Shown here: piece by piece, positions 2,936 to 56,900 of the stretch
Position numbering within the stretch: the first letter of the stretch is position 1
Layout: every line of letters starts with the position of its first letter
DNA from: an uncultured Christensenella sp.
Lineage (GTDB): Bacteria > Bacillota > Clostridia > Christensenellales > UBA1242
Reading direction: 5' to 3'
DNA: 63,684 nt
Assembly (NCBI GenBank): GCA_949287685.1
Contig: CASEHF010000002.1
Coordinates: 1 to 63,684 of the forward strand
Notes under the pieces: generated by a model
Database searches by the model: none
What the model saw: only the letters and a program-made list of their open reading frames with translations
Told to the model about the DNA's origin: nothing
Translations under genes and position numbers: made by a program

Positions 2936-3300
2936 AAGATGAATAGATGCGGTGCGGAGAGCGCAGTGCGAAGGCGCACTCCCGATATAATGTAAATAAG
3001 GGTATTCGCTTTGTATGATGTTTGTGATTTGTTTGGAGTGTTTTAAGCGGAATAGATCCTTCGGCGCGGAGAGCGCGCAGCTCAATAAAAGTAATTAAGC
3101 GGAATAGATCCTTCGTCTAAAGGCTTGCGCGGGGAGCGCTCAGGATGACCCTAAAATATAGCGGTTCGCCTAGGCACCTCACTTTTTCCACCTATACTGT
3201 ATATTAGGTGTACTTGTTCACTACCTAGTACTTTTATATTGGGAGTGCGGCTTCGCACCGCCTTCGCACCGTGGGTCGAGGCTCAGATAGAAGCGGCACT
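2936..3300 (+). repeat. Family-1 mosaic GC-rich repeat, locus A (left module, two short AAGCGGAATAGATCCTTCG-anchored units, right module)
   Basis: Anchor motif at 2936, 3046 and 3097. The 22-bp inverted termini GTGCGAAGGCGCACTCCCGATA (2966-2987) and TATTGGGAGTGCGGCTTCGCAC (3237-3258) are 20/22 complementary. The modules recur at the loci near 16.2, 22.6, 36.9 and 50.2 kb. Confidence 0.85.
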
Positions 3301-16221: not shown

Positions 16222-16935
16222 GCTGGTCATCCTGAGTGTAGACCCGAAAAGTGTAGTTAGTTGTATATTCCGCTGTAATAAAAGTACTGTCATCCTGAGC
16301 CCTGCTTACAGCGCCTTTAGACAAAGGATCTATTCCTCTTAAAAATACTTAGGCTATAACTTAAAAAATAAGAGGATGGTACTGGGCTGGCGCGAGAGTA
16401 TACTTTTTTCATTGTAGTAGTCATTTACGCGCCAGACTTCCCGCAAGCGGGAAGGCATCCTGAGCCTCGACCCGCAGCGCTTTTCGTAACTTAGCATAGA
16501 GTGAAAGGTACCATTAGGAACACCTAGCAATACGCTGCCCGAAGGATCTCAATCTCATCCGCTTAAACAGTCACCCAAACAGTATGAAGCGGAATAGATT
16601 CTTCGTCTCAGGCTCCGTAAGCAGGGCTCAGAATGACAGTAATTTTATTGGTTAAGCGAATAAATGACTATCCACTCTAAATCCAACTCGTGAAGTGTAG
16701 ATAGTCGACCTCGCGCAAGCGCCTAAAACTAGGGGCATCCTGAGTGTCGACCCTCGAAGCCTTTAGTCGAAGGATCTATTCCGCCTAAAAATTCCAAACT
16801 AACTGTAGACAACATTAAGAGCGAATAGCCTTATTTAATATGTATATATTGCGTGTGCGGCTTCGCACCGCCTTCGCACTGCGCCCACGCACCGCATCTA
16901 TTCCTCTTAAAACAACTCCAAACAACTCACAAGCA
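16222..16935. repeat. Family-1 mosaic repeat, locus B (units in both orientations)
   Basis: Reverse-oriented anchors lie at 16326-16340, 16775-16790 and 16896-16910, and a forward anchor at 16587. A reverse-complement M unit spans 16370-16480 (GCGCCAGACTTCCCGCAAGCGGGAAGGCATCCTGAGCCTCGACCCGC). A reverse-complement left module lies at 16790-16935. Confidence 0.85.
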
Positions 16936-17159
16936 ATCATTTAAAGTGGCAATATAGGACTATATTTGGGGTAATTGGTAAATTGTTTTTAGGTGGATAT
17001 GTGGGACCATATTCGGTTAATTTTGGGGGATTTTGGCGGAATTTCGGGATTTTTGTAGGTTTTAGTCTGTTTTTTTATTAAATACATCTTTTCAAACTCC
17101 CCTGCTTTTTATATAATACTCCAAAAATGGGTGGTATTAATATTGTAAGAGGGATAACT

Positions 17160-20100
17160 ATGAAAAACTCCACCCAACACTTTCAATCAAGTAATCAATT
17201 AGGTGCTCAATCAAACACTAACTTAAGCACCAACTCAAGCGCTCAACCAGACACTAACTTAAGCACTCAGCTTAGTGTTCTGCTAGATACCACACAAAGC
17301 AGCAAACTAAGCACTCAACTTAGCGCTCAACTAAACACTAACCTAGACACTCAATCAAATACTCCATTAAATACCCAACCAGACACTAACCCAACCGCTC
17401 AGCCAAGCACCCAACCACACACTTATTTTAACCCCTGTTATGTATCTCAAAAGTCTATAGATTCTGGAGCCTATACTCAAAGTATTAGTGCTAATACACT
17501 GCTAACTAAAGCACAAAATGCCAGCAAGGCACCTAGCATACTATATACTCGTAACACACGGGCTGGTATGCAAGTTGGGCATACTATTAGCAAAATAAAG
17601 CCCGTACTTATGTTGGGTTTTATGTTATTTGTATTGTTTTTGTTTGGGGGTGTTTTATTTTTATATAATCTAACATACAGCACTCAAGCATACACTAGCG
17701 CCCTTAATTTAAACGATACCACCCTAGCAAATATTTCTAGTACCAGCACGCAGGCAACTAACACTGTTCTATTAAACACCAGCACTGTACCCATTAGTAC
17801 TGAAGCAGGTCTTATCTCTTTTGCTAATAGGGTTAATGCGGGCGAGGTTTCCCTATCCGCCACACTCGAGGCAGACATACATCTCTCCTCTCCTTGGGTA
17901 GGTATTGGAACTAACTCAAACCGTTATGCTGGCACTTTTAACGGTAACGGGCATAGCATAACTGGTTGTATGGAAACAGGCTCTAACTATAACGGACTTT
18001 TTGGTGTGTTAGACAGTACTGCAAGCATTCAAAACCTCGAGGTTATTAACGCTATTTCGGGTAACAACCAAGAATTAGGCACTCGTATAGGAGGGCTAGC
18101 GGGAACGGCGTTTGGTGGTACTATTTCAAACTGTTCGATAACTCTTGAGTTATCTGGAGACTTTTCGGATAAGTCTAGGTACTTTGGAGGGGTGGCTGGA
18201 CAGAACCGCAGCAGTCTCGATACCCCGCTAACAATACAATCTAGTGCTGTATACATAAGTGGTGTATACTCCCTAGGTGGAGGGTACATAGCCCCTATTT
18301 CACCACACGGAAAGTACTGCAATGTGTACACCTCGGTACTATACGCTCCTAGTACTATTCCCGCAAGCACATACAACACGCCTATGCTGAATAACTCCTT
18401 TTATCTAGAGTGCACAGACACAGAGGATTTAACAGATGTATTAGGCACAACCTTTGTATACTGCCCTATATGCTTGCGTATGGAATTAGACTTATTTCGT
18501 TGCCAAAGCACTCCACCCTCGCCTATTGTGCTCTCGGTTAGTCTCGCCAAGGACTCATACACATACTCTACCGCAACCCCCGCTCTTGAGTTTGCCCCGC
18601 TAGACACTGGCACTGATGAGGTGTATATTGAGTACGAGGTTTCGGGGTGGACAGTTGGTACACAAACCGCGTACTTAAGTCTTGTGGGCAAGGATAAAGA
18701 CAAGTACACTCTAGAGAATAGCACCTTGTCTTTTTATATCACGCCGCTAGTGCTAGACATAGACATAAGTGCGCAATCTAGCGTATACGGTGAACCGCTA
18801 AAAGACATAGTATACACACTCAGTCCTGCCTGTGATGTATCTATTTCGTTTTCGTTGGTTGGAGATACCACCACTTTACCCAATGCAGGGACTTATAGTA
18901 TTGTACCCGAGGTCCTGGATTCAAACTATACCTTAAACTATACCGAAAGCTCATACACCATACTAAAGAAAGAAGTATCCCTTGTCTGGGACACTCAAAA
19001 ACTCTATTTTAACAACACTCCCCAGCACCCTAGCGCGTATATTTCAAATCTAGACTATACTCCCATAGAATTAAGTTATCTAGGTGGTGGGGTGAATGCT
19101 GGAGAGCATACGATAAAAGCAGTCCTTAGTGATGCTAACCTAGTTATACTCAACGATACACACACATACACAATATACCCCTATACCCTAGACATATCGT
19201 GGGAAAATACCGTACATACATTCAACAACGCTCCATTTGTACCAACACTTAGGTATACGCTCCCCTTTGAGTATAACCTAAGTATACAATCACTAGGGGC
19301 ACAAACTTATGCAGGGACATACACGGCAATATCTAGCACACAAGATAAAAACATAACTATTCTCAATCCTGAGTGCCAGTTTGAGATTAAACCGTATCCT
19401 CTAACCATTACTTGGGGCACAAGCATACACACATTCAACAATACTCCGTTTATCCCTAGCATTGAGTATAGTCTTCCCTTTTCGTATGCACTTGATATAG
19501 AACTGTCTAGCCCGCAGGTTAATACTGGTGTGTATACAGCACGGGCAAGTGTACAAGACAAAAACATACTCATAGAAAACCCTAGCATAGAGTATGAGAT
19601 TAAACCGTACGCAATAACTCTTGTCTGGGGAGAGTGTGTGCATACATTCGATAACACTCCCTTTAGTCCAGCATATACCTATACCCTGCCATTTGAGTAT
19701 ACACCAAATATACAAGCCCCCACTAAAGAAACAAACACGGGTACATACCTAGGTATAGCCTCCAGCCTAAACAAAAACATAACTATACTCAACCCCGAGA
19801 TAGAGTACACAATTATAGCATATAACCTAGACATATCTTGGGAGAGTACGGTACATACTTTTGATAACACTCTATACTTTCCAGCGTATGAGTATACTAT
19901 ACCTTTTCAGTACACTTTGAACCTAATGGAGACTGGTACAGAGATAAACGCAGGCACCTATACCGCTACACTCTCTAGCCTAGACAAAAACATAACCCTA
20001 AACAATAGCAGTACAGAGTACACCATTAAACAAAGAGAAGTATACTTAACTTGGGAGAGTACAAAATACCTATACACTGGGTATATAATACGACCAGAGT

Positions 20101-20933
20101 ACACATACATAGACTTTGGATACAACTTTGAAATACTCACAGATGCGAGTGCAACCGAAACAGGCACATACACAATCATCGCCACTTGCCACAACCCTAA
20201 TATAGTGTTACTTAACCCGAAGCACACCTATACGATTATCCCCCGCGAGTGCAAGGTGGTCTGGGTAAACACCGTATACTACTACGATAGCACAGTTAAG
20301 ACTCCAGGGTATACTTTGGAGTATGATAGTACAGACCTCAACCCAAGCGCTTTACCCGTGGTGCAGATTACGGGGGTTAGCGCAGACATTGGCACTCACG
20401 AGGTACTGGCTGTTTGCAATAGCAAGAACTATACCCTCCTAAGCTCCTCCACCACATACCAAATACTAGCAAACGAGGTTACCGCACACACTGGCGGGGA
20501 GTTGAGCCTGTCTGTGTCTGGAGCGATAGATAGAACTGCCGAGGTGAGCGCTGAGAGTATAACGAACACACAAGCAGCACTCCCTACGGAATACTCGCTA
20601 ATCTTTGCACTAAACATAGAGACCACCTCAAAGACAGGAGACCTAAATATAGAGATAGGCAGCCTACCGAGCCTAAAGGAAGGGTTTAAGATACTCACCC
20701 TAGATACAGAACCTAGAGAGATAGAGTACACCTACGAAAACGGAATACTAACATTCAAGACAGACACCTTGGGCACCTTTTACTTCGTGTACCCGAAACA
20801 AGACCCCCACCTAAGCCCACTATACAGCCTACTCCTCCTCCCACTCCTCCCTATAACACTAATCTATATAATTAGGAAACTTAAACAGCACAATAAATTG
20901 AAAAAGAAAAATTCACCCAACACTTTTAATTAG
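17160..20933 (+). CDS. Large surface protein: Q/S/T-rich N-terminus, TM helix, GLUG-type block, at least 8 tandem ~75-aa MBG-like repeats and a C-terminal TM anchor
   Basis: The start is set at MKNSTQHF (AGAGGG RBS). The TM helix is VLMLGFMLFVLFLFGGVLFLY. GTFNGNGHSITG, YNGLFG and IGGLAG motifs are present. The repeats follow Y.I.PY.L.I.W....HTF(N/D)NTPF.P...Y.LPF.Y......TG.YTA......KNI.I.N. The C-terminus is LLLLPLLPITLIYIIRKLK. Confidence 0.8.
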   Translation: MKNSTQHFQSSNQLGAQSNTNLSTNSSAQPDTNLSTQLSVLLDTTQSSKLSTQLSAQLNTNLDTQSNTPLNTQPDTNPTAQPSTQPHTYFNPCYVSQKSIDSGAYTQSISANTLLTKAQNASKAPSILYTRNTRAGMQVGHTISKIKPVLMLGFMLFVLFLFGGVLFLYNLTYSTQAYTSALNLNDTTLANISSTSTQATNTVLLNTSTVPISTEAGLISFANRVNAGEVSLSATLEADIHLSSPWVGIGTNSNRYAGTFNGNGHSITGCMETGSNYNGLFGVLDSTASIQNLEVINAISGNNQELGTRIGGLAGTAFGGTISNCSITLELSGDFSDKSRYFGGVAGQNRSSLDTPLTIQSSAVYISGVYSLGGGYIAPISPHGKYCNVYTSVLYAPSTIPASTYNTPMLNNSFYLECTDTEDLTDVLGTTFVYCPICLRMELDLFRCQSTPPSPIVLSVSLAKDSYTYSTATPALEFAPLDTGTDEVYIEYEVSGWTVGTQTAYLSLVGKDKDKYTLENSTLSFYITPLVLDIDISAQSSVYGEPLKDIVYTLSPACDVSISFSLVGDTTTLPNAGTYSIVPEVLDSNYTLNYTESSYTILKKEVSLVWDTQKLYFNNTPQHPSAYISNLDYTPIELSYLGGGVNAGEHTIKAVLSDANLVILNDTHTYTIYPYTLDISWENTVHTFNNAPFVPTLRYTLPFEYNLSIQSLGAQTYAGTYTAISSTQDKNITILNPECQFEIKPYPLTITWGTSIHTFNNTPFIPSIEYSLPFSYALDIELSSPQVNTGVYTARASVQDKNILIENPSIEYEIKPYAITLVWGECVHTFDNTPFSPAYTYTLPFEYTPNIQAPTKETNTGTYLGIASSLNKNITILNPEIEYTIIAYNLDISWESTVHTFDNTLYFPAYEYTIPFQYTLNLMETGTEINAGTYTATLSSLDKNITLNNSSTEYTIKQREVYLTWESTKYLYTGYIIRPEYTYIDFGYNFEILTDASATETGTYTIIATCHNPNIVLLNPKHTYTIIPRECKVVWVNTVYYYDSTVKTPGYTLEYDSTDLNPSALPVVQITGVSADIGTHEVLAVCNSKNYTLLSSSTTYQILANEVTAHTGGELSLSVSGAIDRTAEVSAESITNTQAALPTEYSLIFALNIETTSKTGDLNIEIGSLPSLKEGFKILTLDTEPREIEYTYENGILTFKTDTLGTFYFVYPKQDPHLSPLYSLLLLPLLPITLIYIIRKLKQHNKLKKKNSPNTFN

Positions 20934-22582: not shown

Positions 22583-22941
22583 GTTTTGATGGTTGTCTAC
22601 GGTTAGTTTAGAATGTTTTAAGAGGAATAGATCCTTCGTCTAAAGGCTACGAGGGTCGACACTCAGGATGCCTTCCCGCTCGCGGGAAGTCTGGCGCGTG
22701 AATGACCACTACAATTAGAAAAGCATACTCTCGCGCCAGCCCCCTCATTCCGCTTGAAATACCGTATCGCGTATGCGACTACGCACTTTCTTATCGGGGG
22801 TGTGCCTACGCACCGCGAGTACGACTTTATGCTATTTTATTGTTTATACAACTTTATGGTATTTACTGTTGGTACGACTTATTCTTTCGTATTGCGGGTG
22901 CGGCTACGCACCGCCCACACACCGCGCCAGCCATGCACCCT
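22583..22941 (+). repeat. Family-1 mosaic repeat, locus C (truncated left module, one M unit, R2 right module)
   Basis: GGTTGTCTACGGTTAGTTTAGAATGTTTT followed by AAGAGGAATAGATCCTTCG at 22620. The M unit carries the CTTCCCG-CTCG-CGGGAAG and CTGGCGCG...CGCGCCAG hairpins. The R2 module is shared with locus E. Confidence 0.85.
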
Positions 22942-24845: not shown

Positions 24846-26336
24846 CTAAACATCTATGCCATATCTACTTTGAATTAAATCTTGTATTTGTTTAGTTATA
24901 TCATCACCCAAATTATTTCTTATTAATTTTTCAATTGATGTAAAATCTGCATAACCATCTCGAGATGACAAGCATTCACGATAGCAGTATGCACCAAGCT
25001 CTTCAGCTCGAATCACAACAATATTATGCCCCTCTATATCTCTACGCACACCCCTAGAAAACTTGGGTGCCACTATAAGACAAAAATCTGAACCATGCTT
25101 TATAATATGGTCCTCAATTCTACGAGCATTGATTTCTTCAAGTGCAGATTTCCTAGTTTTTGCATCCACATTCATATTATAAACACTATCTGTCTGCACT
25201 TCACGCATTGCACACAAAAGGTCTGTATTACCAGCACCCCCTATTAGTTCAACATTTTCAGTTTCCCTAAACAATTCTAGAAGTGGTTTTAATGCTTGTT
25301 CAAATTCTTTACCATTACTACTGCCATATTTTGCAGCATATGTCATTTTTGTAATCACATCCAAAGTATATTTATTTTGAGAGAAACTGTTGGAAATGCA
25401 ATTTAAATACTCTAAAGGCTCAATTTCGTACAATTCAGTCAACCAATCGCGTATTGAATAAATTCCTTCTGAATTTTGATTTATGGGAATATCAAATGCC
25501 GAAAATCTATCTCTTAGTTTAATGGCATCATGCATTACAGCATCTGTTAATTTTACATATCCAGAATGTTTAGCTCTAGATTTATAAGCATCAGTTCTTT
25601 TTGTTGACCCACTACCATGAGAAAAAGAAAATAAATTGCCATTATTATGCGCAGAATCTTCTATAATATTAAAAACACCAAATGATTCAAAAATTCTTAA
25701 AAAATAGTAATTTATTTCATGCGTAACATTGGAAAAAACATCATGATAGTCACGCACACTTTGAAACAGACTTAACTTCTGCAAATAAGATAACTGTCTA
25801 TATTCCAAAATACTCTCAATTAATTCATCATATATAATTTCATTAATTTTTTCCAAGAAAGGCAAGAACCATATCATTTCATCAATATAAAGTTTTTGCT
25901 CAATTCTTTCATCCAATAATAATTTAACAATCAAACGACCAAAATATATGTTAAAATTAGCTGGGGTAAGACTATATGGCTGTGGAAATTGCATGCTAAA
26001 CAAATTAATCAAAAAATTAGAGCTTTTTTCTATTAAATTTTTATCATTATTCAAAATATTTAATGTCATGGGAGATGGTATAAATTTATTTTCTATTTTA
26101 TAACCAAACATATAAAAACACATTTGGCTAAACCTAACACCCATTGTATTAACACTCCCAAAAACTGATCGACCTCGATATAAATTTCTATCCCTTAACT
26201 CTTGTTGCACTCGACCAAAATCCACATTGTTACCTAAAGTTTTTAATGCTTCTACATAGGCACTCATTAATTCTGAAGAACTAATGTTTTTTTGTAAAAT
26301 CCATTTATTATCTTTGCTTCTTTTTAATGATATCAT
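24846..26336 (-). CDS. Putative type IIS-like restriction endonuclease
   Basis: The start lies 10 nt after the stop of the second methyltransferase. A candidate PD-(D/E)xK signature (NTDLL ... NVDAK, coding near 25155-25172) sits in the C-terminal third. The gene is AT-rich. Confidence 0.6.
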   Translation of the reverse strand: MISLKRSKDNKWILQKNISSSELMSAYVEALKTLGNNVDFGRVQQELRDRNLYRGRSVFGSVNTMGVRFSQMCFYMFGYKIENKFIPSPMTLNILNNDKNLIEKSSNFLINLFSMQFPQPYSLTPANFNIYFGRLIVKLLLDERIEQKLYIDEMIWFLPFLEKINEIIYDELIESILEYRQLSYLQKLSLFQSVRDYHDVFSNVTHEINYYFLRIFESFGVFNIIEDSAHNNGNLFSFSHGSGSTKRTDAYKSRAKHSGYVKLTDAVMHDAIKLRDRFSAFDIPINQNSEGIYSIRDWLTELYEIEPLEYLNCISNSFSQNKYTLDVITKMTYAAKYGSSNGKEFEQALKPLLELFRETENVELIGGAGNTDLLCAMREVQTDSVYNMNVDAKTRKSALEEINARRIEDHIIKHGSDFCLIVAPKFSRGVRRDIEGHNIVVIRAEELGAYCYRECLSSRDGYADFTSIEKLIRNNLGDDITKQIQDLIQSRYGIDV

Positions 26337-26346
26337 TATACCCCCC

Positions 26347-27393
26347 TTAATTTTTGCCTATTTTATCTACTATCGCCTTGCTCAATCTTGGTGGAATTGC
26401 CTCACCAATAACAGTCCTTATAAGATTATCAGTACACCAATTAGGTAAATCCCAATCTGCAGGCAAAGAACTAACTATAAACAACTCTCGCAAAGTTAGC
26501 ACTCTTGCATCGCTGTAAGTGCCATCCTCCAACAACCTACCAGGATGAACATTATTATGTCCACCCATATTACCATTGTTCATTGCTCTTGCAGGACAAG
26601 GTTCATCCCATTTCATTCTTTTATAGGTATTATGAAAACCTTTTATTCTTTCCCCATTAGATTTTTTTGGATAATAATACTCATTCTTTAGAGCAGAGCA
26701 CCCCTCGCTAGTGTGCTTCATCGCAGTAATTTCCCTATCATTATGACACTTTGCGTAATGCCATTTAATACCACTATCTTGTCCAGATTCAAGCGAAGGC
26801 AATCCTCCAATTGCCTCCCTTAAAGTTATCTCTTTTTGTTTTAATGGTTTACCCCACACCAAACCCTTCTTCCACAATCTAATAAAGCCTCTTGGGCGGC
26901 TTTGAGGAACACCATAATCTTTAGCATTTAACACAAATGAATCAATGTTATATTTAGATGAATACTTGTCATTAATAATTTCTAGTAAGGTTTTCAATTT
27001 GTTTTTATATGGAAAATATAATTTTAAAAATTTGGGAACATTTTCAATTAAAATGTAATTAAAATCACCCCTATCCATTATATCAAAAACATAAAAAATT
27101 AAGTAATTTCTCTTGTCATTGTTATAATCTTTTTTACCTAAGCTACTCATACCTTGACAAGGAGGAGTAGCAATTAAAAATTCACACTTTTCTGCAGTCG
27201 CCATTTTTAAAACAGAGTTAAAAACTTTTTTATTCGTTATGTCACCACAGATTGAAGTGCAATCAGGGTATAAATAAATATGCAAATCATTTCTTTTTTT
27301 TAATAATTCATTAGATACTACTATATCAATCCCGCTTTCTTTGAAATACGTTTCAGCTATGCCAGCCCCACTAAATAAAGATAATCCCTTCAT
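26347..27393 (-). CDS. DNA (cytosine-5) methyltransferase, copy 2
   Basis: The start is set at MKGLSLFSGAG (a TAATG overlap with the upstream stop). Motifs are FSGAGIAE (I), PPCQGMS (IV), ENV (VI), QSRPR (VIII) and GEAIPP (X). Confidence 0.9.
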   Translation of the reverse strand: MKGLSLFSGAGIAETYFKESGIDIVVSNELLKKRNDLHIYLYPDCTSICGDITNKKVFNSVLKMATAEKCEFLIATPPCQGMSSLGKKDYNNDKRNYLIFYVFDIMDRGDFNYILIENVPKFLKLYFPYKNKLKTLLEIINDKYSSKYNIDSFVLNAKDYGVPQSRPRGFIRLWKKGLVWGKPLKQKEITLREAIGGLPSLESGQDSGIKWHYAKCHNDREITAMKHTSEGCSALKNEYYYPKKSNGERIKGFHNTYKRMKWDEPCPARAMNNGNMGGHNNVHPGRLLEDGTYSDARVLTLRELFIVSSLPADWDLPNWCTDNLIRTVIGEAIPPRLSKAIVDKIGKN

Positions 27394-28463
27394 TAGTTTT
27401 CTACCTTTTTTATATTTTTGCAAACTACTTCCATAAGTTTGGGAGGAACGGCTTCTCCTATCATATGCCTAATTTGAATATCAGTAGCGAATTTAGGAAT
27501 ATCAATATCGGGATTTATAGAACTTAAAATAAATAACTCCCGCAAAGTTAGTACTCTAGCATCACTATAAGTACCATCTTCCAACAGTCTACCAGGATGG
27601 ACATTACTTTGAGATGAGATAGCATCATTCCTCATGGTTATTGTCGGTGCGGGTTTGTCCCAATCAATTCTTTTATAAGATGCTGAATAACATTTTAATT
27701 TTGTTCCATCATCCTTTTGTGGATAAAACTCCGTATTTTCCACTGCTGATTTACCTGTGGGAGTGTGTTTCATCCACAATACATGCTTAGCAGAATGCTC
27801 CCTCGCATAGTGATTTTTTATATTAGATTTTTGTCCCGCCTCTAATATAGGTAAATCCCCAATAGCTTCTTTTACAGTAATTTGTTTTAAATTCTTTTTG
27901 GGATGAGAGAACTTATACCCATCCTTACATAAAACAATTATTGCTCTTAATCTATTTTGAGGGATACCATAATCAGCCGCATTATAAACTGAAACATCTA
28001 TATCATATAAAAATCCATACTTATCTCTCAATATAGACTCTAGATTTTCCATACTACTTTTATAAGGAAATTTTATATCTAAAAATCTAGCAACATTTTC
28101 AATCACAACCACTTTTGGTTTAATACTATCAATAATATCAAAAGCTGAAAAAATTAAATAATTCCTACTATCATTTAACATTTCTTCATTATTCTTATTC
28201 TTTCCAATTAAAGAAGCGCCTTGACACGGCGGAGTTGCTAGTATAAAATCTATCCCACAGGCTAACGATTGCTGAATGATATCCTCTTTTACATTCGGGC
28301 TGGTTATATCACCACATAAAACTTTTGCTTTTGGATGCCAAAATTTATGAACTTGACACCTAATTGGAAGCAGCTCATTTGCTAAAAGTATGTCTATACC
28401 GCACTTGTATAAATTCATTTCAGCAATACCAGCACTTGAAAACAATGATAACCCTTTAAGCAT
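27393..28463 (-). CDS. DNA (cytosine-5) methyltransferase, copy 1
   Basis: Motifs are FSSAGIAE (I), PPCQGAS (IV), ENV (VI), QNRLR (VIII) and GEAVPP (X). Confidence 0.9.
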   Translation of the reverse strand: MLKGLSLFSSAGIAEMNLYKCGIDILLANELLPIRCQVHKFWHPKAKVLCGDITSPNVKEDIIQQSLACGIDFILATPPCQGASLIGKNKNNEEMLNDSRNYLIFSAFDIIDSIKPKVVVIENVARFLDIKFPYKSSMENLESILRDKYGFLYDIDVSVYNAADYGIPQNRLRAIIVLCKDGYKFSHPKKNLKQITVKEAIGDLPILEAGQKSNIKNHYAREHSAKHVLWMKHTPTGKSAVENTEFYPQKDDGTKLKCYSASYKRIDWDKPAPTITMRNDAISSQSNVHPGRLLEDGTYSDARVLTLRELFILSSINPDIDIPKFATDIQIRHMIGEAVPPKLMEVVCKNIKKVEN

Positions 28464-36933: not shown

Positions 36934-37574
36934 AAGCGGAATAGAGTCGTACGAAGGCAGTGCAAAGCCACACTCCCGATAGATAGATATAATACGACCA
37001 CTCACTTTAAATACTTGTCTACGATAGATTGGGGATTTTTTAAAGAGGAATAGATCCTTCGTCTAAAGGCTTCGCGGGTCGACACTCAGGATGCCTTCCC
37101 GCTCGCGGGAAGTCTGGCGCAAGAACGGCTACTTCAATGAGAACCGTATACTCACGCGCCAGCCCATCTGCCACTTATTTTTTAGTCGTAACCCAAGAAT
37201 TTTTCAGCGGAATAGATCCTTCGTCTGAAGGCGCTGCGGGTCGAGGCTCAGGATGCCTTCCCGCTTGCGGGAAGTCTGGCGCGTAAATGACCACTACAAT
37301 GAGAAATGTATACTCTCGCGCCAGCCCAGTACTCTCTGCCACTTAAAGAGGAATAGATCCTTCGTCAAAGGGCTTGCGTAGGTCGAGGCTCAGGATGACC
37401 CTAAATTATAGCGGCGTGCTTAAACACCTCACTTTCCCCACTTATACAGTATATTAAGTATATATATCCAACACCTAGTACCCTTTAATATAGGGAGTGC
37501 GCCTTCGCACTGCGCCTACGCACTGAGATCGAGGCTCAGGGCACCTTTCCACTCGTAGGAAGGCATCCTGAGCC
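36934..37574 (+). repeat. Family-1 mosaic repeat, locus D (left module, two full M units, one short unit, right module, terminal hairpin)
   Basis: Anchors lie at 36934, 37043, 37205 and 37346. The inverted termini GTGCAAAGCCACACTCCCGATA (36960-36981) and TATAGGGAGTGCGCCTTCGCAC (37489-37510) match at 18/22. The terminal GGCTCAGG...CCTGAGCC hairpin ends 5 nt from the stop of the next gene. Confidence 0.9.
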
Positions 37575-37578
37575 TTTC

Positions 37579-37983
37579 TTACCTGTTTTTAGCCTCGGCA
37601 TTTAAAAACTGGGCAATACCCTCCAAACTCGTAAAAACCCGCCCACCATTCTCTAAAATCATATTACTAATTGCTTGCATACTGCCGAGATTATGAGAAT
37701 TAAAGCGCATCTCCCCAAAACTCTCAAGATAGCAGAATAGCAATTTTTCAGGGTGCTTATTACTCATATCAACAGCCCGAGCAACTGACAAAAAGCCCTG
37801 TGTTTCAGGCGTTAGCACATACAATATGTAATCGGCTTGACTTTTAATTTCTGAATTGTCAGAAAAATTGTATTCTCTAATTGTTTCGACTGGATTATAA
37901 ACCGAAATTTCAGGCAGCAAATATGCGGTTAACTTCTCGCGCCAAACGCTCCCGCTACAGGTTCCCCCTAAATAAACCAACAT
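37579..37983 (-). CDS. Nucleoside 2-deoxyribosyltransferase-like (Nuc_deoxyri_tr2-type) small protein
   Basis: The VYLGGTCSGSVWREKL....L....VYNPV N-terminal pattern is typical of the family. The AGGAGGG RBS overlaps the recO stop. Confidence 0.45.
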   Translation of the reverse strand: MLVYLGGTCSGSVWREKLTAYLLPEISVYNPVETIREYNFSDNSEIKSQADYILYVLTPETQGFLSVARAVDMSNKHPEKLLFCYLESFGEMRFNSHNLGSMQAISNMILENGGRVFTSLEGIAQFLNAEAKNR

Positions 37984-43953: not shown

Positions 43954-44027
43954 GCAGGTGTAGTTCAGTGGTAGAACACGAGCTTCCCAAGCTTGATATG
44001 AGGGTTCGATTCCCTTCACCTGCTCCA
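43954..44027 (+). tRNA. tRNA-Gly (anticodon CCC), CCA encoded
   Basis: Hand-folded cloverleaf. The acceptor stem is GCAGGTG/CACCTGC and the D arm is GTTC-AGTGGTA-GAAC. The anticodon stem is CGAGC/GCTTG with loop TTCCCAA. The T arm is GAGGG-TTCGATT-CCCTT, followed by discriminator T and CCA. Confidence 0.9.
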
Positions 44028-44344
44028 CACAAGTACGGAGTTATTGCTCCGTTTTTTTTATTATGAGTACGCAGTACAAAGGGAATCGAACGGGCACGCC
44101 AGGAAAAGTCGCCAGTGGCGAGTTTTCAGTGCCCCGGCGTGATAGTGGAGCAACGCGGAACGGAGCGATTCCCTTCACCTGCTCCACACAAGTACGGAGT
44201 TATTGCTCCGTTTTTTTATTATGAGTACTCAGTACAAAGGGAATCGAACGGGCACGCCAGGAAAAGTCGCCAGTGGCGAGTTTTCAGTGCCCCGGCGTGA
44301 TAGTGGAGCAATGCGGAACGGAGCGATTCCCTTCACCTGCTCCA
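44008..44344 (+). repeat. Tandem direct repeat seeded by the last 20 nt of tRNA-Gly (two units of 159 and 158 bp, plus a third 20-nt copy)
   Basis: GATTCCCTTCACCTGCTCCA occurs at 44008-44027, 44167-44186 and 44325-44344. The two 139/138-nt inter-copy segments differ at only about 3 positions. Confidence 0.9.
44035..44059 (+). terminator. Rho-independent terminator after tRNA-Gly
   Basis: ACGGAG-TTATTG-CTCCGT followed by a T-run of 8. The same hairpin recurs near 44195 and 44473. Confidence 0.6.
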
Positions 44345-44767
44345 TTTTGTTTGCCTTTTCCACAAGTACTGCGTTACGCGCCACTTTTAGACCGCTCGTA
44401 CGCCCGAGTACACCATGCGCCCTAAAAGGTGCTTTTTACAAAAAAATCCAAACAAAAATACTCTAAGTATGGAACGGAGTTATTGCTCCGTTTTTTTTAT
44501 TTAATAATTTTGTATTTTCTCAATTTTCAATTTTTACAAAAAAATTATTTTGTTCAAATAACACTAGATAGACAATTTGCTTTTACTTTTTTAAATTTTT
44601 CGTATATAATTAGGTAAGGTTTATACTCTAGATTATAACGGCTTATAAATTTAGAACTAACCTAAAAAGTGTGAAAAATAATAAAATTTAATGTTTTTTC
44701 GCATTTTTTAGCCCAATTTTACGATTTTTTATAATTTTTACTAAAACCAAACACAAAAAGGAGTAAC

Positions 44768-50193: not shown

Positions 50194-50640
50194 AAGCGGA
50201 ATAAATTATTCGGTGCGTGGGCGCACTCCCGATAGATAAGTAAGGCTATTCGCTTTGAATGGTTGTCTACGGTTAGTTTAGAGTGTTTTAAGAGGAATAG
50301 CTCCTTCGTCGAAGGCTTCGCGGGTCGAGGCTCAGGATGCCTTCCCGTTTACGGGAAGTCTGGCGCGTGAATGTTTATTACAATGAGAAAAGTATACTCT
50401 CGCGCCAGCCCAGTACTCTCTGCCACTTAAAGAGGAATAGATCCTTCATCGAATGCTTCGCGGGTCGACACTCAGGATGCCTTCCCGCTTGCGGGAAGTC
50501 TGGCGCGTGAATGTTTATTACAATGAGAAATACATACTCTCGCGCCAGCCCCACCATTCCGCTTGAAATACCATATCGCGTGTGCGACTATGCACTTTCT
50601 TATTGGGAGTGCGCCTACGCACCGAAGGAGCCAATCCGCT
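50194..50640 (+). repeat. Family-1 mosaic repeat, locus E (left module, two tandem 140-bp M units, R2 right module)
   Basis: Anchors lie at 50194, 50290 and 50430. The inverted termini GTGCGTGGGCGCACTCCCGATA (50213-50234) and TATTGGGAGTGCGCCTACGCAC (50601-50622) match at 20/22. Confidence 0.9.
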
Positions 50641-50728
50641 TTTTCCTATTACAATTTTACGGTTGGTTCGAGATGTTTCAATTCTCTTTGGCACATTTAG
50701 ACATATGAGGCACAAGCATTATAAAAAA

Positions 50729-50970: not shown

Positions 50971-53900
50971 TTAAGTCGTGGGTTGTTCTGGCTCAGGTTC
51001 TGGTTCGGGCCCTGGCTCGGTCACCACTTGGAAAACTGCAGTGATTGTGTCGCCATTGATAGCGGACTTCTCTATAGTGAGAGTTAACTCACTACCTACA
51101 GTTTCGCCAGCAGAGTTCTGCCAGCCCACAAACTCGTAACCTGCGTTTGGCGTAGCCACTGCGATGACTGTTTCGCCCTCCTCGCTAGTGATTTGCACCT
51201 GTCCGCCCTCGCCCGCTACAATTTGGTAAACGATTGGCTCGGGGTAAAGTACGGTCGTGGTATTTTGTGTAATGGCACCACTGCCTGTGATTTGAGTGTC
51301 TGGGGTCAAAAGTTCTGCCCCCGTGATAGCAAAGGCACTAACTGCCGAGCCAACAAGGTCGATATTTGCATTCAAGGTGATTAGCACATCGCCCTGTGTA
51401 TAAGTCGTAAATAGTCCCGCAATATTCTCGCCTGTAATAGTCACTAGACCGCTAAATGTAGCATTAATACTACCCGAATTGTCACCAACTAATGCAGCGC
51501 TATTATTTCCATTAATCGTGCTGGCTAAAATGTTTACGCCACTAATAGCACCTAAGTTTTCTCTAGTAATTAGGTAACTATTATCACCATTTACTGTCGC
51601 CGTAAGGTTTAGATTTGAAATCGTGCCAGTGGCTGCATTGCTAGCCGCTACGGCGCCGATATTAGCGCATGTAATAGTTAGATTTAGGTTACCCTGTCCA
51701 GTCACTCCCGTAATAGTGCCGCTATTGTTAATTGCGACACCACCAACATTCGTGTTCGCCACGATACTAGCCGTTACATTGCCGATTGAAATTGTACCAG
51801 CATTTGTAGTAGCACCGAGAGTAATATTGTCAAGGTTTTGGCTATTTATCGTAGTATTTGCGATACTGTTAAGGTTTAGAGTGCCATTATTCGTGTTCAC
51901 CAGCGCTAAAATACCGTTTGCTACGAAGTTTACTGCATTTACATTCACGGTAGCGCCAGTCATAATCGTGTTACCAATGCCATAAACGCTAATTTCGCCC
52001 GAGGTGTATACATTGACATTTGTAAGTGCGACATTCGTAATTGTGTCGCGGTCAAAGGTCTCGAGTACTAAACTTGCGTTGCCATCGGCGTAAATCTCGA
52101 CATCCTGCAGCACTAAATCGAGCCCCGTTGTCGCACTAGAATACTTGACATTCGTGCGCCCAAAAATGCTGCCGCCGTGAAGCACGACTCCCATATTCTC
52201 AAGTCTAGTCACCTGACTATTGCTGAGACCGTTTGCGAAGTCGCTCGTACTATCTACGCGCTCAATAAGTCCATCGCTAAAGCCGCCAACAGTTAGGAAT
52301 ACATCGGTGTTTGTATTAGTATCACCTAGCATCGGCAAATACCTATTATTTAGCGAGAATACCGTGTCGGTAAAGCGGATATAGTAGTCAGTACCGCCGT
52401 GGTCGCCTATGTACTCGACAATTCTTTCGAATTCATCAATATTCGAAATGACATATTCGTTTGCGTTTAACGACACCGAAGCACCAAAGCGAGCGGACTC
52501 GCCGATTGTAGGCACAAAGGCGCGCAAATCGTAGGCTTTTGCACCATTTACAGTCTTACCAGTGTATACCCAAATGTTGCCATTTAGAGTCGAAATATCA
52601 GTCGGTAGCGAAGTAAAGCAATCGCTTGCGTTTGCCCCAAATGTTGCACCATTAGACAAACTATTTGTAATGTTTCCGCTGCCTATCACCGCCCCCGTGC
52701 TGCTATCGGTATAAATCGAGGTAGCGAGCCCCGAAACAGTATTTGCAAGAGATACGCTCGCGGTACTGTTTAGTATTGCTAAATTGCTAATCTCGCCCGA
52801 AAGCGTGCCGATTAAGGTGTTAGTTACATTTAAAATCGAGTTCCCTCTGCCATCAAGATTTCCTATAAATGCGGTCGTACGCGTATAGATATTAGCGAGG
52901 TATGTGTAATCGATATCGCATTCAAGGGCATAGTAACTAGCACCTGCATTATTTAACGCCCAAGCAAGCAGCCCCGCAGAATTAATTAGATACGGACTGT
53001 TTATAGAACCTGTACCCGTGTCTCTTAAGTCATCTTCACTCAGCCACTTAAAGTACGGTAGTCCGTAGTTTAAAGATGTGTCTATCGTAAAGGCATTTCC
53101 TAAAGACAATGGACTGTCCCCGCGCTGATTAGCAATCGTAAAGGAAGTAAAGTTAATCAGCGGGTTTACGGAAGCCGAGCGCTCGTAATATACGCCTTGC
53201 GCATTTGTAGCGCCGCTATAGTTTGCGACCACTGCATTCGTACCAACCTGTCCTGTAGTATCTGTTAAGATAACGGCTGTGTAGGTGTTCTCGTTGTAGA
53301 AGTTTAATGTCTCGCCACTCTCACCAGCCACGCGCCCCACGAGTCCTGCTATGTTTGAGTTTGTGTTTGGGTTATGGTTAGCAATATTACCGATTGCATA
53401 ACTATCGATAAAGGTTAAGCGGGTGTCCGTGTTTGTAGACCAGCCAACTAGACCTCCCAAATTCACGCTACCACCAGTACCTAGACTTTCGCCGGTATTT
53501 GATACGCTACCGTATAGATTTATGTCTACATCTGCACCGCTACCGATAATTTGACCGCGGTTGATACCAGCCAAAGCGCCGATATTTGCGCTCCCGCTAG
53601 ATACCCCGAGGCTAAGGTCGGCTATTACATAACTTGAGAAAATCTTTGCTTTGCTACCTACAACACTAGCAGCGCCTCCAAATACTGCGCCATTAGGAAG
53701 TTTTGTAGACACGCTAACTTGTATCTTAGCACCCGAGAGGATAGAACCTTTGCTATTTACCTCGCTTAACTCGGAGAATACTCCGTAGTTTTGGTTTGTG
53801 GACTCACTAAATACCGTGTAGTCTAGGGTGTCGATTTCGTTTGCTACCAAATGGTTTCCACCTGCATTGTACCAGCCGTAAAGTGTGCGAGTGGTGTTTA

Positions 53901-56900
53901 GGTTAATACCACTGATTACCGTACTTGTCTGCAAGTAGTATTTGTATAAATCGCCCTCATCCTCGGCAATTGCGTTGAAGTCATTAGTGTTGCTAACCAG
54001 AATTGGTGCGCGCTTTGAATCGCCTGCTGCCACCGTATTTGAGTACAAGGCCTCGTAGCGTGTAATGCTAGGGTTAAAGTTCGACCAGTTGTCGACAACT
54101 AACCTTGCGTAACTATTCCCCGTAGGTGATGTTAGGTGGTCCGCAATATTAAAGCCTAGTACGACTCTACTATTGCGCCCTAGCCCCAGTCGGTCGCGCA
54201 CGGTCAGCCCTAGGTATGCATCGCAATATACACTGCTAGCCAAATCGCCCTCAAAGACTGCAAGGTCGATATTGTTTATACGAGTGTTGTTAAATATTGA
54301 CACAATCGAATAACCCGACTGAATGAGTGAGCCTTGGTTTACACCCACTACTCCCGCAATCGCGTGAATCGAACTTACACTCGTGGAGTCAACATCGACA
54401 TTATAGTTTCCGTTGATTTCGATATCGCCGCTATTTGCGAAGTAGTAAACGCTGTCGCCCTCACTCCTACCGAACAAGCCACCGACATTGAGTGCGTAAC
54501 TACTGGTGAGATTGTTTAGATTTACGATTACATTTGTAGCACTGTCGATTGACTCAATCGTGTTATTTTGTGAGCGCCCTGCAAATCCGCCTGCGTATAC
54601 TGAGCGATACACATTATTTATAGTCACATTTTGCGCGCTGACTGCGTTAGAGATACTGCTAGCGGTAGTGTGCCCTACAAAGCCACCTATGTAATGCGTA
54701 ATTACTACATTACTTAGGCTCGTGTTAGTTTGATTTATTATACCCTCCGCATAGGCGTTTTCTACTGTGACATTACCATAAATCTCGCCAGCGAAGCCAC
54801 CAAGGTATGTGTCTACCACTTCGGTGTATGTATTGTCTCTAGCCGTAATGTCCATATCCACATAGCAGTTTGTTATGCTGGTCGCTCCCTCGGTAGTTGC
54901 GTACACTCTACCGAACATTCCGCCCGTATAGGTAGCGGTACTGTCGATTCCGTGATAAGCGCCCAAGGTCTCAGTATCACGAGTAATGTTTACATTCGTA
55001 ATCGTGCTATCGCGCACAACTCCCACCAGTCCGCCGACATAGCCTATTATTCCTTCGCTAAGGTCGGTAGATAGGTACAAGTTCACGATATTGACATTTT
55101 GAATAACCGCGCCATCGGTCGCGCCGAACACGCCTGCATTCATAGCGCCAGTCATAACAATCGGTATGTTATATAAGGTGTGATTATTCCCGTTAAACGA
55201 CCCAGTGAATGGCGCACTCTCCGAGCCCACGGGGACTGCTGCTACTTTTTCTGCTAAAAAGTCAATGTCCGCCATAAGCACATAGTCTACATCGGGGTGC
55301 CAATACATTTGCCTGTAGTCGCTCGCACTATAGATATAGATAATCTCGGGTACATCTTGGATATCGATTGATGGAATGCCATTTTCATTTGAAATGCTAT
55401 AGGTATCCCAACCGCCGAAAATCTCATCGAAGTTATTTAGCATATAGCCACGAGTGTGCCCAGTCGCGGGCTCTGCACTCGTGCCAGGCTCAAATCTGCC
55501 GACTGCATCGAGGTTGATAAAGTTTCCAGTCTCCTGCTCCTCTATGACAGTATTTAGCACAACCCTATCATAAATTTGGTTTACATAGAAGTTAATACTG
55601 TTAATTAACTCGTAGTACGGAGTGCTAGAATCGCCAGTATCGTTCGTATGAGTCGTGTAAATCATGCCAGCGTTGAAGCAGTATCCCACGAGTCCACCTT
55701 GGGCGCCTGTGCCCTGGTAATCAATCTCGTGATAATAGTTATAGTCGCTAGCAAGGTAGTTGTTTAACGCCACGCAGTAGTCTAGGGTCGTGAGCATATT
55801 ATTATATTCACTAAATGGATTGCTTAACCCCTCTGGAATACTAGCCATTTCACTAAAGTTACTAATATGCCCCACAATTCCGCCAAGGTATACAGTACGA
55901 TTTCCGTACACGCCACCAGTCGCGAACACGGCTCTAATATCACCACCCATCGCGACACCTACGATACCGCCGACATTGGCACTATGAGTATTGCGCACGC
56001 GCACCTTGCTACTGGTGTAGTATATAGTACCACTCGGCCAGCCTGATGCTGTGTAACCGATATTGAGTCCCACAATACCACCAGTACCTAAGTTATTCTG
56101 CTCGGTCTCGAAAATCGTATTGTTTACAGTAATCGTGTTGCCGCTCGCATTTGTAGTCGTGTCCTCACCTGTGTTTGCAAGGTCGACAGCCGCCTGCACT
56201 GTTTCGGTATAGTTCACTTTACCATAGCGAATGACACCGTTATTCTGCCCTACTAATCCACCAGAGTACGAATTTCCCATAATTCGCGAACTAGAGTCGA
56301 TTTCCGTAGTTGCGTTATTCATAACAGAGTGCATACCCAGTGCTCCTGCGACACCACCCGCGATTTTACCCACCACGGTGTGCTGTCCGTAGGCTGTGAT
56401 ATTGTTTAGCACTGCCTCATCCATATCTGTAGTGGTCTTAATCTCGTTAAACTGAGTCAAGTCAACCACTCCAAACACACCACCAGCAAAGCCCATTCGT
56501 GTAATTGAGTTTGCAGTGCCACCTAAAATTCTAGCAATATCAATGTTGTAAACTAGGTTTGTGTCTGCCTTGTAGTTCGCGGTAACGCCTACATTAGCGC
56601 TAATTAGGTTAGCGCGGGTAGTGCCAGTAAGTAGCCCCGCTACACCACCGACTGCGTTATTCCCTACGACACGAGCAGACTGACCAGTAACCGCGATGTT
56701 GTAGATGTTTGCGTTCTCGACTACGCCCGCAAGTGCGCCAACATAGTCAACTAGTGAACACGACACCATACTTACCTCGATATTTAGGTTCTTTACGGTA
56801 CCGATATGCGCAATTTCACCACTGCGCACGCTATCGCCGCGCGAAATTGTACCGAATAGACCGTATCTGTCTACGCTCTCATCATTTACGGCAAGGTTGA

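Follow-up and report, generated by a model that had tools for sequence, protein, structure and literature searches.

Mosaic intergenic arrays of a probable Ssn-related DNA hairpin in an uncultured Christensenella sp.

Introduction

Short hairpins in bacterial DNA that are read by a small dedicated nuclease have recently been described, as NTS repeats and Ssn-related motifs (SRM) of Ssn nucleases, by Chenal et al. 2025 (PMC11893778). SsnA of Neisseria meningitidis, a GIY-YIG protein of ~94 aa, binds the NTS repeat CGTCATTCCCGCGMAVGCGGGAATCYRG as single-stranded DNA only, with RNA and duplex DNA excluded as substrates, and cuts a few bases upstream of it; cutting depends mainly on the three bases 5' of the palindrome, and binding mainly on the C that directly follows it (PMC11893778). 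The NTS-ssnA-NTS layout is like that of an insertion sequence, and clusters of NTS tend to adjoin surface-protein genes (PMC11893778). In the same study, 71% of homologous ssn genes had an SRM nearby, and 81% of the genomes with more than 200 SRMs had an Ssn homologue; the published SRM search string is HGTCWYN(0-2)YYVSBRHN(0-5)WNVSBRGN(0-2)RNCYNB (PMC11893778).

Larger mosaics of hairpins and other modules are known from Neisseria as NIMEs, in which RS elements of 50-150 bp, belonging to more than 100 families, are flanked by dRS3 hairpins; about half of the dRS3 hairpins are NTS (PMC1797815). NIME arrays vary between strains at one site, their G+C content peaks at the hairpins, and they have been thought absent outside Neisseria (PMC1797815). 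A further group of hairpin repeats, REP/BIME, goes with RAYT (IS200-like Y1) transposases (PMC3733652).

Here, we describe five repeat arrays in the genome of an uncultured Christensenella sp. (contig CASEHF010000002.1), all within one stretch of 63,684 nt that was analysed as a whole and is referred to as the window. Our results suggest that these loci are probably mosaic arrays in which a DNA hairpin of the Ssn-related class is interspersed with lineage-specific modules in a NIME-like organisation, and that they are shaped by an Ssn-type nuclease together with recombination at the hairpin arms.

Results and discussion

Five GC-rich repeat loci in the window

A first-pass annotation of the DNA had proposed a modular intergenic repeat family with five loci, and this family proved to be real. 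The anchor AAGMGGAATAGATCCTTCG was matched 13 times in the window at up to three mismatches, compared to 0.01 matches expected, and 13/13 matches lie within the five loci. The covariance-model search proposed for M-type units was run on the window with a model derived from 37 core units of the lineage; it found 10 full core units and one partial unit, all inside the five loci, and none in the rest of the 63,684-nt window. The loci are listed below, together with their core units and the modules (L, M, R1 and R2) that are described in the next section.

Locus A: 2936..3300, plus strand; L module at 2936-3044, short anchor unit at 3045-3096, core unit at 3097-3150 (GTC variant), R1
Locus B: 16222..16935, mixed orientation; L module inverted at the right end
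Locus B core units: 16288-16340 (minus strand), 16587-16638 (plus strand) and 16733-16786 (minus strand)
Locus B M body: 16379-16483, minus strand
Locus C: 22583..22941, plus strand; tail of the L module, one M unit (core unit at 22620-22673), R2
Locus D: 36934..37574, plus strand; the focal array, with L, M1, M2, a core unit, R1 and a terminal palindrome
Locus E: 50194..50641, plus strand; L, M1 (core unit at 50290-50342), M2 (core unit at 50430-50482), R2

All five loci are intergenic (two between same-strand genes, two between divergent genes and one between convergent genes), and they account for 4% of the window and for 27% of the non-coding DNA in it. As noted in the first-pass annotation, the units are GC-rich and lie in AT-rich spacers: M units contain 52-57% G+C, the loci 45-50% and the repeats as a whole 48%, compared to 28.6% in the remaining intergenic DNA of the window. 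Repeat finding recovered the L tail, the M unit and both types of right-hand module, and it also detected long inverted matches between loci.

The orientation of the core units showed no relation to the flanking genes, and the units of locus B lie in both orientations. An analysis of GTCAT-strand bias against GC skew, an idea borrowed from IS200/IS605, revealed no bias (12 versus 16 units), and promoter-like and terminator-like sites in the array were not in excess over shuffled sequences. The three largest genes of the window all have an array as their neighbour; they encode an 878-aa BNR/fn3 protein, a 1268-aa protein and a 4231-aa InlB B-repeat protein.

Overall, these findings support a modular, interspersed repeat family at the DNA level, and the A-(B)n-C or BIME-like architecture that had been suggested for it is real. 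Pneumococcal BOX elements are intergenic and follow the order boxA-boxB(n)-boxC; neither a cognate enzyme nor a hairpin common to several phyla is known for them. In layout, the arrays resemble BOX through their intergenic A-(B)n-C arrangement.

Modular anatomy of the arrays

The M unit had been regarded as a repeat of three consecutive hairpins that is present at every locus in one to three copies. It is indeed found with its second and third hairpins, but BLAST with one M unit revealed that it is composite: positions 1-54 represent a core unit that also occurs alone. Core units without a body number three in locus B, and others are present in locus A and in front of R1 in locus D. An M body (hairpins 2 and 3) that lacks an anchor of its own is found in locus B and, in two instances, in a sister MAG that is introduced below. 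The presence of an M unit at every locus was not confirmed, as locus A has no M body. Across the loci, the other modules alternate with the core units; their lengths are ~85 nt for the M body, ~95 nt for L, ~150 nt for R1 and ~90 nt for R2 of locus E, with a longer R2 in locus C. The two alternative right modules of the first-pass annotation were recovered. R1 belongs to loci A and D, where its copies are 80% identical, and R2 to loci C and E, which share 89% identity along a 173-nt repeat with the M unit included.

The focal locus D adjoins the stop codon of a 134-aa gene at 37579 and contains the following parts.

36934..37042, plus strand: L module, with the anchor-like start AAGCGGAATAGAGTCG
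37043..37096, plus strand: core unit 1, opening M1; 80.1 bits; arms ATCCT and AGGAT
37095..37112, plus strand: hairpin 2 of M1, CTTCCCG-CTCG-CGGGAAG
37114..37162, plus strand: hairpin 3 of M1, CTGGCGCA…CGCGCCAG, with an AT-rich 33-nt loop
37205..37258, plus strand: core unit 2, opening M2; 70.6 bits; GGC variant
37257..37274, plus strand: hairpin 2 of M2, CTTCCCG-CTTG-CGGGAAG
37276..37324, plus strand: hairpin 3 of M2, CTGGCGCG, 33 nt, CGCGCCAG
37346..37400, plus strand: core unit 3; 74.6 bits; GTC variant; R1 follows
37401..37528, plus strand: R1 module; 80% identical to R1 of locus A
37529..37574, no strand assigned: terminal palindrome, GGCTCAGGGCACCTTTCC-loop-GGAAGGCATCCTGAGCC, a duplex of the CTCAGGATGCCTTCC arm

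Within the L module (36934..37042), a degenerate GTGC-N4-CAC hairpin is followed by TCCCGATAG and then by a T-rich tail, and the end of R1 (TATAGGGAGTGCGCCTTCGCAC) is an inverted copy of this L-module hairpin. Read on the minus strand, core unit 1 is GGC-ATCCTGAG…CGAAGGATC-TATTCC, which represents the GGC variant, and core unit 3 is GTCATCCTGAG…CGAAGGATC. The 22-bp inverted termini previously assigned to loci A, D and E are real; those of locus E span ~42 nt, and those of locus A are subterminal. In addition, the left end of locus A and the right end of locus D match over 28 nt with 96% complementarity.

Folding and covariation of the hairpins

The anchor GGAATAGATCCTTCG and the downstream sequence CTCAGGATG(A/C)C represent the two arms of one hairpin, which on the opposite strand reads GTC-ATCCT-GAG…CGA-AGGAT-C within a unit of ~54 nt. 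In the consensus fold of 37 aligned core units, ATCCT of the anchor pairs with AGGAT of CTCAGGATG, and pairing in the 5-bp outer stem together with a G-C pair reaches 98.6% over all 37 units. One pair of the outer stem covaries (C-G in 31 units, T-A in four and T-G in two): ATCCT/AGGAT is changed to ATTCT/AGAAT in 4/37 units, and such compensated arms are present in the core unit at 16587-16638 of locus B. This long-range pairing takes the place of the first hairpin proposed earlier, CCTTC-n-GAAGG, which showed one-sided changes only. Furthermore, the arm sequence itself is conserved beyond mere pairing, and the arms are near-perfectly kept in 37 units of two species that share ~85% identity in their repeats.

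From GTC/GGC to ATC, the core spans 41-44 nt, including an insert of ~24 nt that does not simply extend the stem in the lineage of the window. In the DNA minimum-energy fold, the outer stem was formed in 15/37 units of this lineage compared to 83/89 distinct units from other phyla. The C located 3' of the stem is present in all units matched; GTC is found in 4/10 and GGC in 6/10 of the window units, and the units of the sister MAG mostly carry GTC.

The two remaining hairpins of the M unit were found in every M copy, as the first-pass annotation had stated. Hairpin 2 (CTTCCCG-loop-CGGGAAG) keeps its stem with a varying loop; over 13 M units, it is 100% paired, with compensatory changes at two pairs. 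Hairpin 3 (CTGGCGCG-33 nt-CGCGCCAG) retains the 33-nt spacing and is nearly invariant, and therefore offers no covariation evidence either way. Folded as naked single-stranded DNA, M units reached modest z-scores of -1.8 to -1.9 against shuffled sequences, and the terminal palindrome at 37529-37574 stands out alone with z = -4.06.

Distribution of the core hairpin and its modules

In order to survey the core hairpin beyond the window, one genome per species was scanned for the two arms (GGAATAGATCCTTCG, 18-30 nt, CTCAGGATG). The 24 loci found include 13 from one MAG of an uncultured Clostridia bacterium (BRZ_PQ__bin18), here called the sister MAG. In this MAG, M bodies, L tails and the L/R terminal hairpin are present as well, with ~85% identity to those of the window. 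The other loci were single and belong to Rickettsiales, Doudnabacteria, Ekhidna, Fibrobacter, Bacteroidia, Flavobacteriales, Oscillospiraceae and other Bacillota MAGs; the groups with exact arms are Rickettsiales, Patescibacteria, Bacteroidota, Fibrobacter and Bacillota. A metagenome scan (ATAGATCCTTCG, 4-34 nt, CTCAGGATGAC) yielded at least 120 contigs. Among the metagenome matches listed, a centre of 5 nt (CTTCG or CTGCG) is the most frequent, longer centres are palindromes in their own right, and many units are inverted doublets. In viral contigs, the minimal core was matched five times and the lineage-type core not once, and blastn of locus D against plasmids and phages returned no match.

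The M body and the L and R modules were found only in the lineage of the window and in one sister Clostridia MAG, and the terminus GTGCG-N4-CGCAC-TCCCRAT showed the same restriction to the window lineage and the sister MAG. An M-specific pattern had no match in JGI metagenomes; because the pattern is absent from these core-bearing metagenomes, we consider the M, L and R modules lineage-specific and the core pan-phylum. No orthologues of window genes were detected in 87 kb of the sister MAG, so that the relatedness of the two is read from their shared repeats only. The arrays of the sister MAG adjoin a paralogous family of InlB-B-repeat proteins. Apart from one Logan assembly, only ENA metagenome assemblies contained genes of the window.

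Ssn-like GIY-YIG nuclease genes beside the hairpin

To identify genes associated with the hairpin, ORFs were clustered from all fetched loci except the window's own strain contigs. The commonest neighbour was a protein of 91-113 aa, present at nine loci at a median distance of 108 nt from an exact-arm hairpin, and this protein is a single-domain GIY-YIG nuclease (PF01541). At several of the nine loci, the gene lies between inverted hairpins (GTCATYCTGAG…CGAAGRATCT, gene, AGATYCTTCG…CTCAGRATGAC), and its stop codon is sometimes located inside the hairpin flank. Starting from the protein, a profile search for Ssn-like proteins yielded at least 7,997 protein clusters. In a reciprocal look-up, 3/3 Ssn-like proteins were flanked by GTCATCCTGAG…CGAAGGATC hairpins; two of the three are labelled Oscillospiraceae, and one of those two lies between gyrB and gyrA.

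In the alignment, Y7, Y18 and E65 of the GIY-YIG proteins found here correspond to Y6, Y17 and E64, the residues that had been mutated in SsnA. Searches of PDB and NCBIfam with the GIY-YIG protein returned only a distant UPF0213 structure and sub-threshold matches. Neither the 64-kb window nor 87 kb of the sister MAG contained a GIY-YIG gene, and a six-frame profile search of the arrays and the rest of the window revealed no GIY-YIG remnants below E = 0.1.

Comparison with published repeat systems

The expectation that the family is absent from Rfam was borne out. In the window, tRNA-Gly alone exceeded the gathering threshold; for the focal locus, a search up to E = 10 gave nothing better than E = 5, and 16 related loci produced only tRNA and an unrelated Acido-Lenti-1 match. 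A literature search by raw sequence words returned nothing relevant. The broader statement that the sequences match nothing and are undescribed did not hold, since the core hairpin is pan-phylum, flanks Ssn-like genes and falls into a class that was published as NTS/SRM in 2025. As the anchor is an arm of the known Ssn-companion hairpin, the family belongs to a known sort of repeat; both the hairpin class and mosaic arrays are already known, and the form found here is an elaborate one in a phylum without earlier description.

NTS (CGTCATTCCCGCG…GCGGGAATC) and the window core share a frame consisting of GTC (in 4/10 window units), AT-stem, stem-AT and C. Similar to SRM, the window core is an imperfect, apparently oriented palindrome within 20-50 nt that is intergenic and high-copy, and hairpins with identical arms flank ~95-aa single-domain GIY-YIG genes elsewhere, including in Clostridia. 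In contrast to SRM, the window stem is CCTGAG/CGAAGG (published: TCCCGCG/CGCGGGA), the core holds the ~24-nt insert without simple stem extension, and GTC is replaced by GGC in 6/10 units. The published SRM string had no match in the window on either strand: two stem positions of the window arms deviate from the string, and the insert exceeds the length that it permits. By inspection, the minimal pan-phylum form GTCATCCTGAGCGAAGCGAAGGATC also fails the string at two stem positions; the ATCCT/AGGAT arm-type therefore represents an SRM subclass that would have been missed by the published survey.

With regard to organisation, the arrays resemble NIMEs. In both, modules of 50-150 bp from several families alternate with a GC-rich hairpin at which the G+C content peaks, the composition of the array at a given site varies from strain to strain, and the arrays tend to adjoin large surface-protein genes. 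However, the host is a Clostridia-like uncultured bacterium, the modules are unrelated, and there are extra hairpins 2 and 3 in M as well as the separate terminal hairpin GTGCG-N4-CGCAC. The dRS3 motif (ATTCCCN8GGGAAT) had no match in the window.

With REP/BIME, the arrays share hairpin repeats in alternating orientation and mosaic clusters, and also the probable association with a small dedicated nuclease that has one or few gene copies and reads single-stranded DNA; the enzyme family differs (GIY-YIG versus HUH-Y1). No GTAG or CGTC tag beside the hairpins is conserved in the unit alignment. Among the ORFs of the window, Pfam detected no transposase, including no Y1 transposase or RAYT. The cognate RAYT/IS200-like transposase suggested in the first-pass annotation was thus not found there, and an Ssn-type GIY-YIG nuclease would fit instead. 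What stands of this idea is the style of mechanism, i.e. a nuclease that reads single-stranded hairpins, but the enzyme family was wrong.

Array turnover between strains and alternative explanations

Comparing strains, we found three configurations of locus D in three strains whose flanks are 97.8-100% identical. In the strain with 99.5% identical flanks, an L-type body replaces the M1 body exactly between two anchors, and M2 shows a block of differences that includes a compensated C-G to T-A change in hairpin 2 (CTTCCTG…CAGGAAG versus CTTCCCG…CGGGAAG in the window). The strain with 97.8% identical flanks carries a wholly different mosaic by the same stop codon, with the boundary 13-mer inverted. 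Cassette exchange takes place at the 19-nt identical anchors. Loci A, C and E were unchanged in one strain compared, and strain look-ups for locus B found no exact protein on record.

It could be assumed that the loci are MITEs, that is, composite elements moved whole by a conventional transposase that is encoded elsewhere and recognises the 22-42-nt L/R termini. Such elements would account for the inverted termini in loci A, D and E, for the confinement of the GTGCG-N4-CGCAC-TCCCRAT terminus to the lineage and the sister MAG, and for the high copy density. Of the further MITE features, however, neither target-site duplications nor empty sites were seen: the duplications sought at the suggestion of the first-pass annotation were not consistent at the loci, where a 7-mer in the AT-rich flanks of locus A was the sole candidate, and no empty site appeared in any strain comparison made. 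Moreover, strains differ by internal cassette exchange and not by whole-element presence or absence, modules occur in many combinations and orientations, and Pfam revealed no transposase in the window. We therefore regard a MITE origin as unlikely. The exchange at 19-nt identical anchors and the block-wise strain differences also fit gene conversion, and the arrays might be relics without a dedicated enzyme now, in which change comes only from homologous recombination, gene conversion and replication slippage among copies at different sites. Although no nuclease gene is present in the 64-kb window and in 87 kb of the sister MAG, and GTC has been lost in 6/10 units, we consider this explanation rather unlikely, given the near-perfect arms of 37 units in two species with ~85% repeat identity, the compensatory changes that keep the stems paired and the fact that 81% of the genomes carrying more than 200 SRMs have an Ssn homologue (PMC11893778). 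The relic explanation overlaps with the main reading.

Structured RNAs had also been listed among the candidate functions; as transcribed RNAs, the units would be small RNAs, mRNA stabilisers or terminators. Hairpin 2, with its two compensatory pairs and 100% pairing, would agree with such a role, as would the position of several arrays at gene ends, where locus D adjoins a stop codon. In palindromic DNA, however, template switching can also yield compensatory changes; hairpin 3 is invariant and thus contributes no covariation evidence. The arrays lie in mixed orientation relative to neighbouring genes, with two loci between divergent genes, and promoter-like or terminator-like sites are not in excess. 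Together with modest fold z-scores, the absence of an Rfam family at E-values up to 10 and an arm sequence that is conserved more than pairing alone would demand, this argues against structured RNAs, which we consider very improbable.

Proposed mechanism

For the preferred reading as Ssn-related mosaic arrays, the following mechanism can be envisaged. An Ssn-type nuclease, encoded elsewhere in the genome now or recently, would recognise the single-stranded units, and the conserved arms would double as junctions for recombination and gene conversion. Exchange at the arms would then shuffle the M body, L, R1 and R2 and give rise to arrays that differ between strains. The GGC units (6/10) may be bound yet poorly cut. 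A benefit for the host, e.g. the control of incoming DNA or the variation of neighbouring surface-protein genes, is speculative.

A more far-reaching proposal, which appears quite improbable to us, is that of an independent NIME-type system in this Clostridia-like gut lineage, the first outside Neisseria, in which the Ssn hairpin was fused with two conserved hairpins and the GGC M units and the arrays have roles. One of the fused hairpins would share the TTCCCGC…GCGGGAA palindrome of the Neisseria NTS. GGC M units could serve as bind-not-cut sites or as targets of a second nuclease, and arrays by giant surface-protein genes might steer recombination or single-stranded DNA uptake there.

If the reading as Ssn-related arrays is true, the pairing of Ssn and hairpin reaches past the mainly Gram-negative hosts of its characterisation into Clostridia-like uncultured bacteria. 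The published SRM string misses a whole arm-type, ATCCT/AGGAT, which is abundant in metagenomes from soil and occurs in gut MAGs as well. Arrays of the NIME style, once thought peculiar to Neisseria (PMC1797815), here arise in another phylum. The GTC and GGC variants would provide a natural set for studying the cutting rules of single-strand nucleases, which are under development as tools. Finally, a contig of this organism in one public assembly ends inside an array, and the arrays therefore probably hinder assembly.

Terminal and internal hairpins of the arrays

The ends of the left (L) and right (R) modules of the mosaic arrays are marked by a second hairpin, GTGCG-N4-CGCAC, which is followed by TCCCRAT. 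This combination was found only in the lineage of the window and in the sister MAG (an uncultured Clostridia bacterium with the same modules); the loci that come from other phyla all lack it. In the M unit, the palindrome core of hairpin 2 is identical to that of the Neisseria NTS/dRS3 repeat (ATTCCCGCG…GCGGGAAT), but the GTC flank of the Neisseria NTS is absent. Hairpin 2 could represent a second nuclease-type hairpin, or the likeness to NTS/dRS3 could be a coincidence.

Hairpins of the module ends and of the M unit
Window 2966, 3258, 22813, 37510, 50213 and 50622: GTGCG-N4-CGCAC
Fetched loci L013, L015, L018 and L025: GTGCG-N4-CGCAC
Window 37096-37112, 37258-37274 and other M units: hairpin 2, TTCCCGC-TT-GCGGGAA

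Genomic surroundings of the arrays

Arrays lie beside each of the window's three largest genes (166-2802, 17127-20933 and 50971-63666). In the sister MAG, the arrays (L007, L013, L017, L018) are next to members of a paralogous family whose 495-788-aa proteins carry InlB B-repeats. The placement in both genomes echoes that of the Neisseria NTS/NIME arrays, which are clustered near surface-protein genes. The 1268-aa ORF beside array B, for which no Pfam match was found, contains four to five tandem repeats of 213 nt (71 aa) each (window 19167-20031). Furthermore, a Logan contig from a public assembly of the window's organism (L001) has its terminus within array D, at window 37425, and the repeats therefore probably limit assembly.

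Ssn-like genes and the minimal hairpin in other genomes

In two Oscillospiraceae MAGs, gyrB and gyrA are separated by a short spacer that holds a gene for an Ssn-like GIY-YIG nuclease, with a hairpin doublet on either side of the gene (L162 1414-1873, L163 870-1329). A soil contig carrying the minimal hairpin (L094) also contains an Acido-Lenti-1 RNA (RF01687, 44.8 bits, 1485-1528), which suggests an acidobacterial origin of this contig. This RNA and the minimal hairpin are unrelated.

Other features of the window

24846-28463, minus strand: 496-aa ORF, then a tandem pair of C5 cytosine DNA methylases (358 and 356 aa)
43954-44501: tRNA-Gly(CCC), then two tandem units of ~159 nt (134 nt at 99% identity)
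5663, 22513, 24610, 24630, 36837, 46041 and 47051: examples of the 10-mer TGCATAGTAC

The 496-aa ORF has no Pfam match. The layout of this group is typical of those type IIS restriction systems, e.g. HgaI, in which each strand has its own methylase. Each unit behind tRNA-Gly(CCC) has at its end a duplicate of the tRNA 3' terminus and the same terminator hairpin, of which a third copy is located at 44474; these units may be integration relics at the tRNA. The 10-mer, occurring 16 times in the window (up to one mismatch) versus 4.5 expected, probably serves the window's organism as a promoter or operator motif, with copies lying mostly in spacers close to gene starts.
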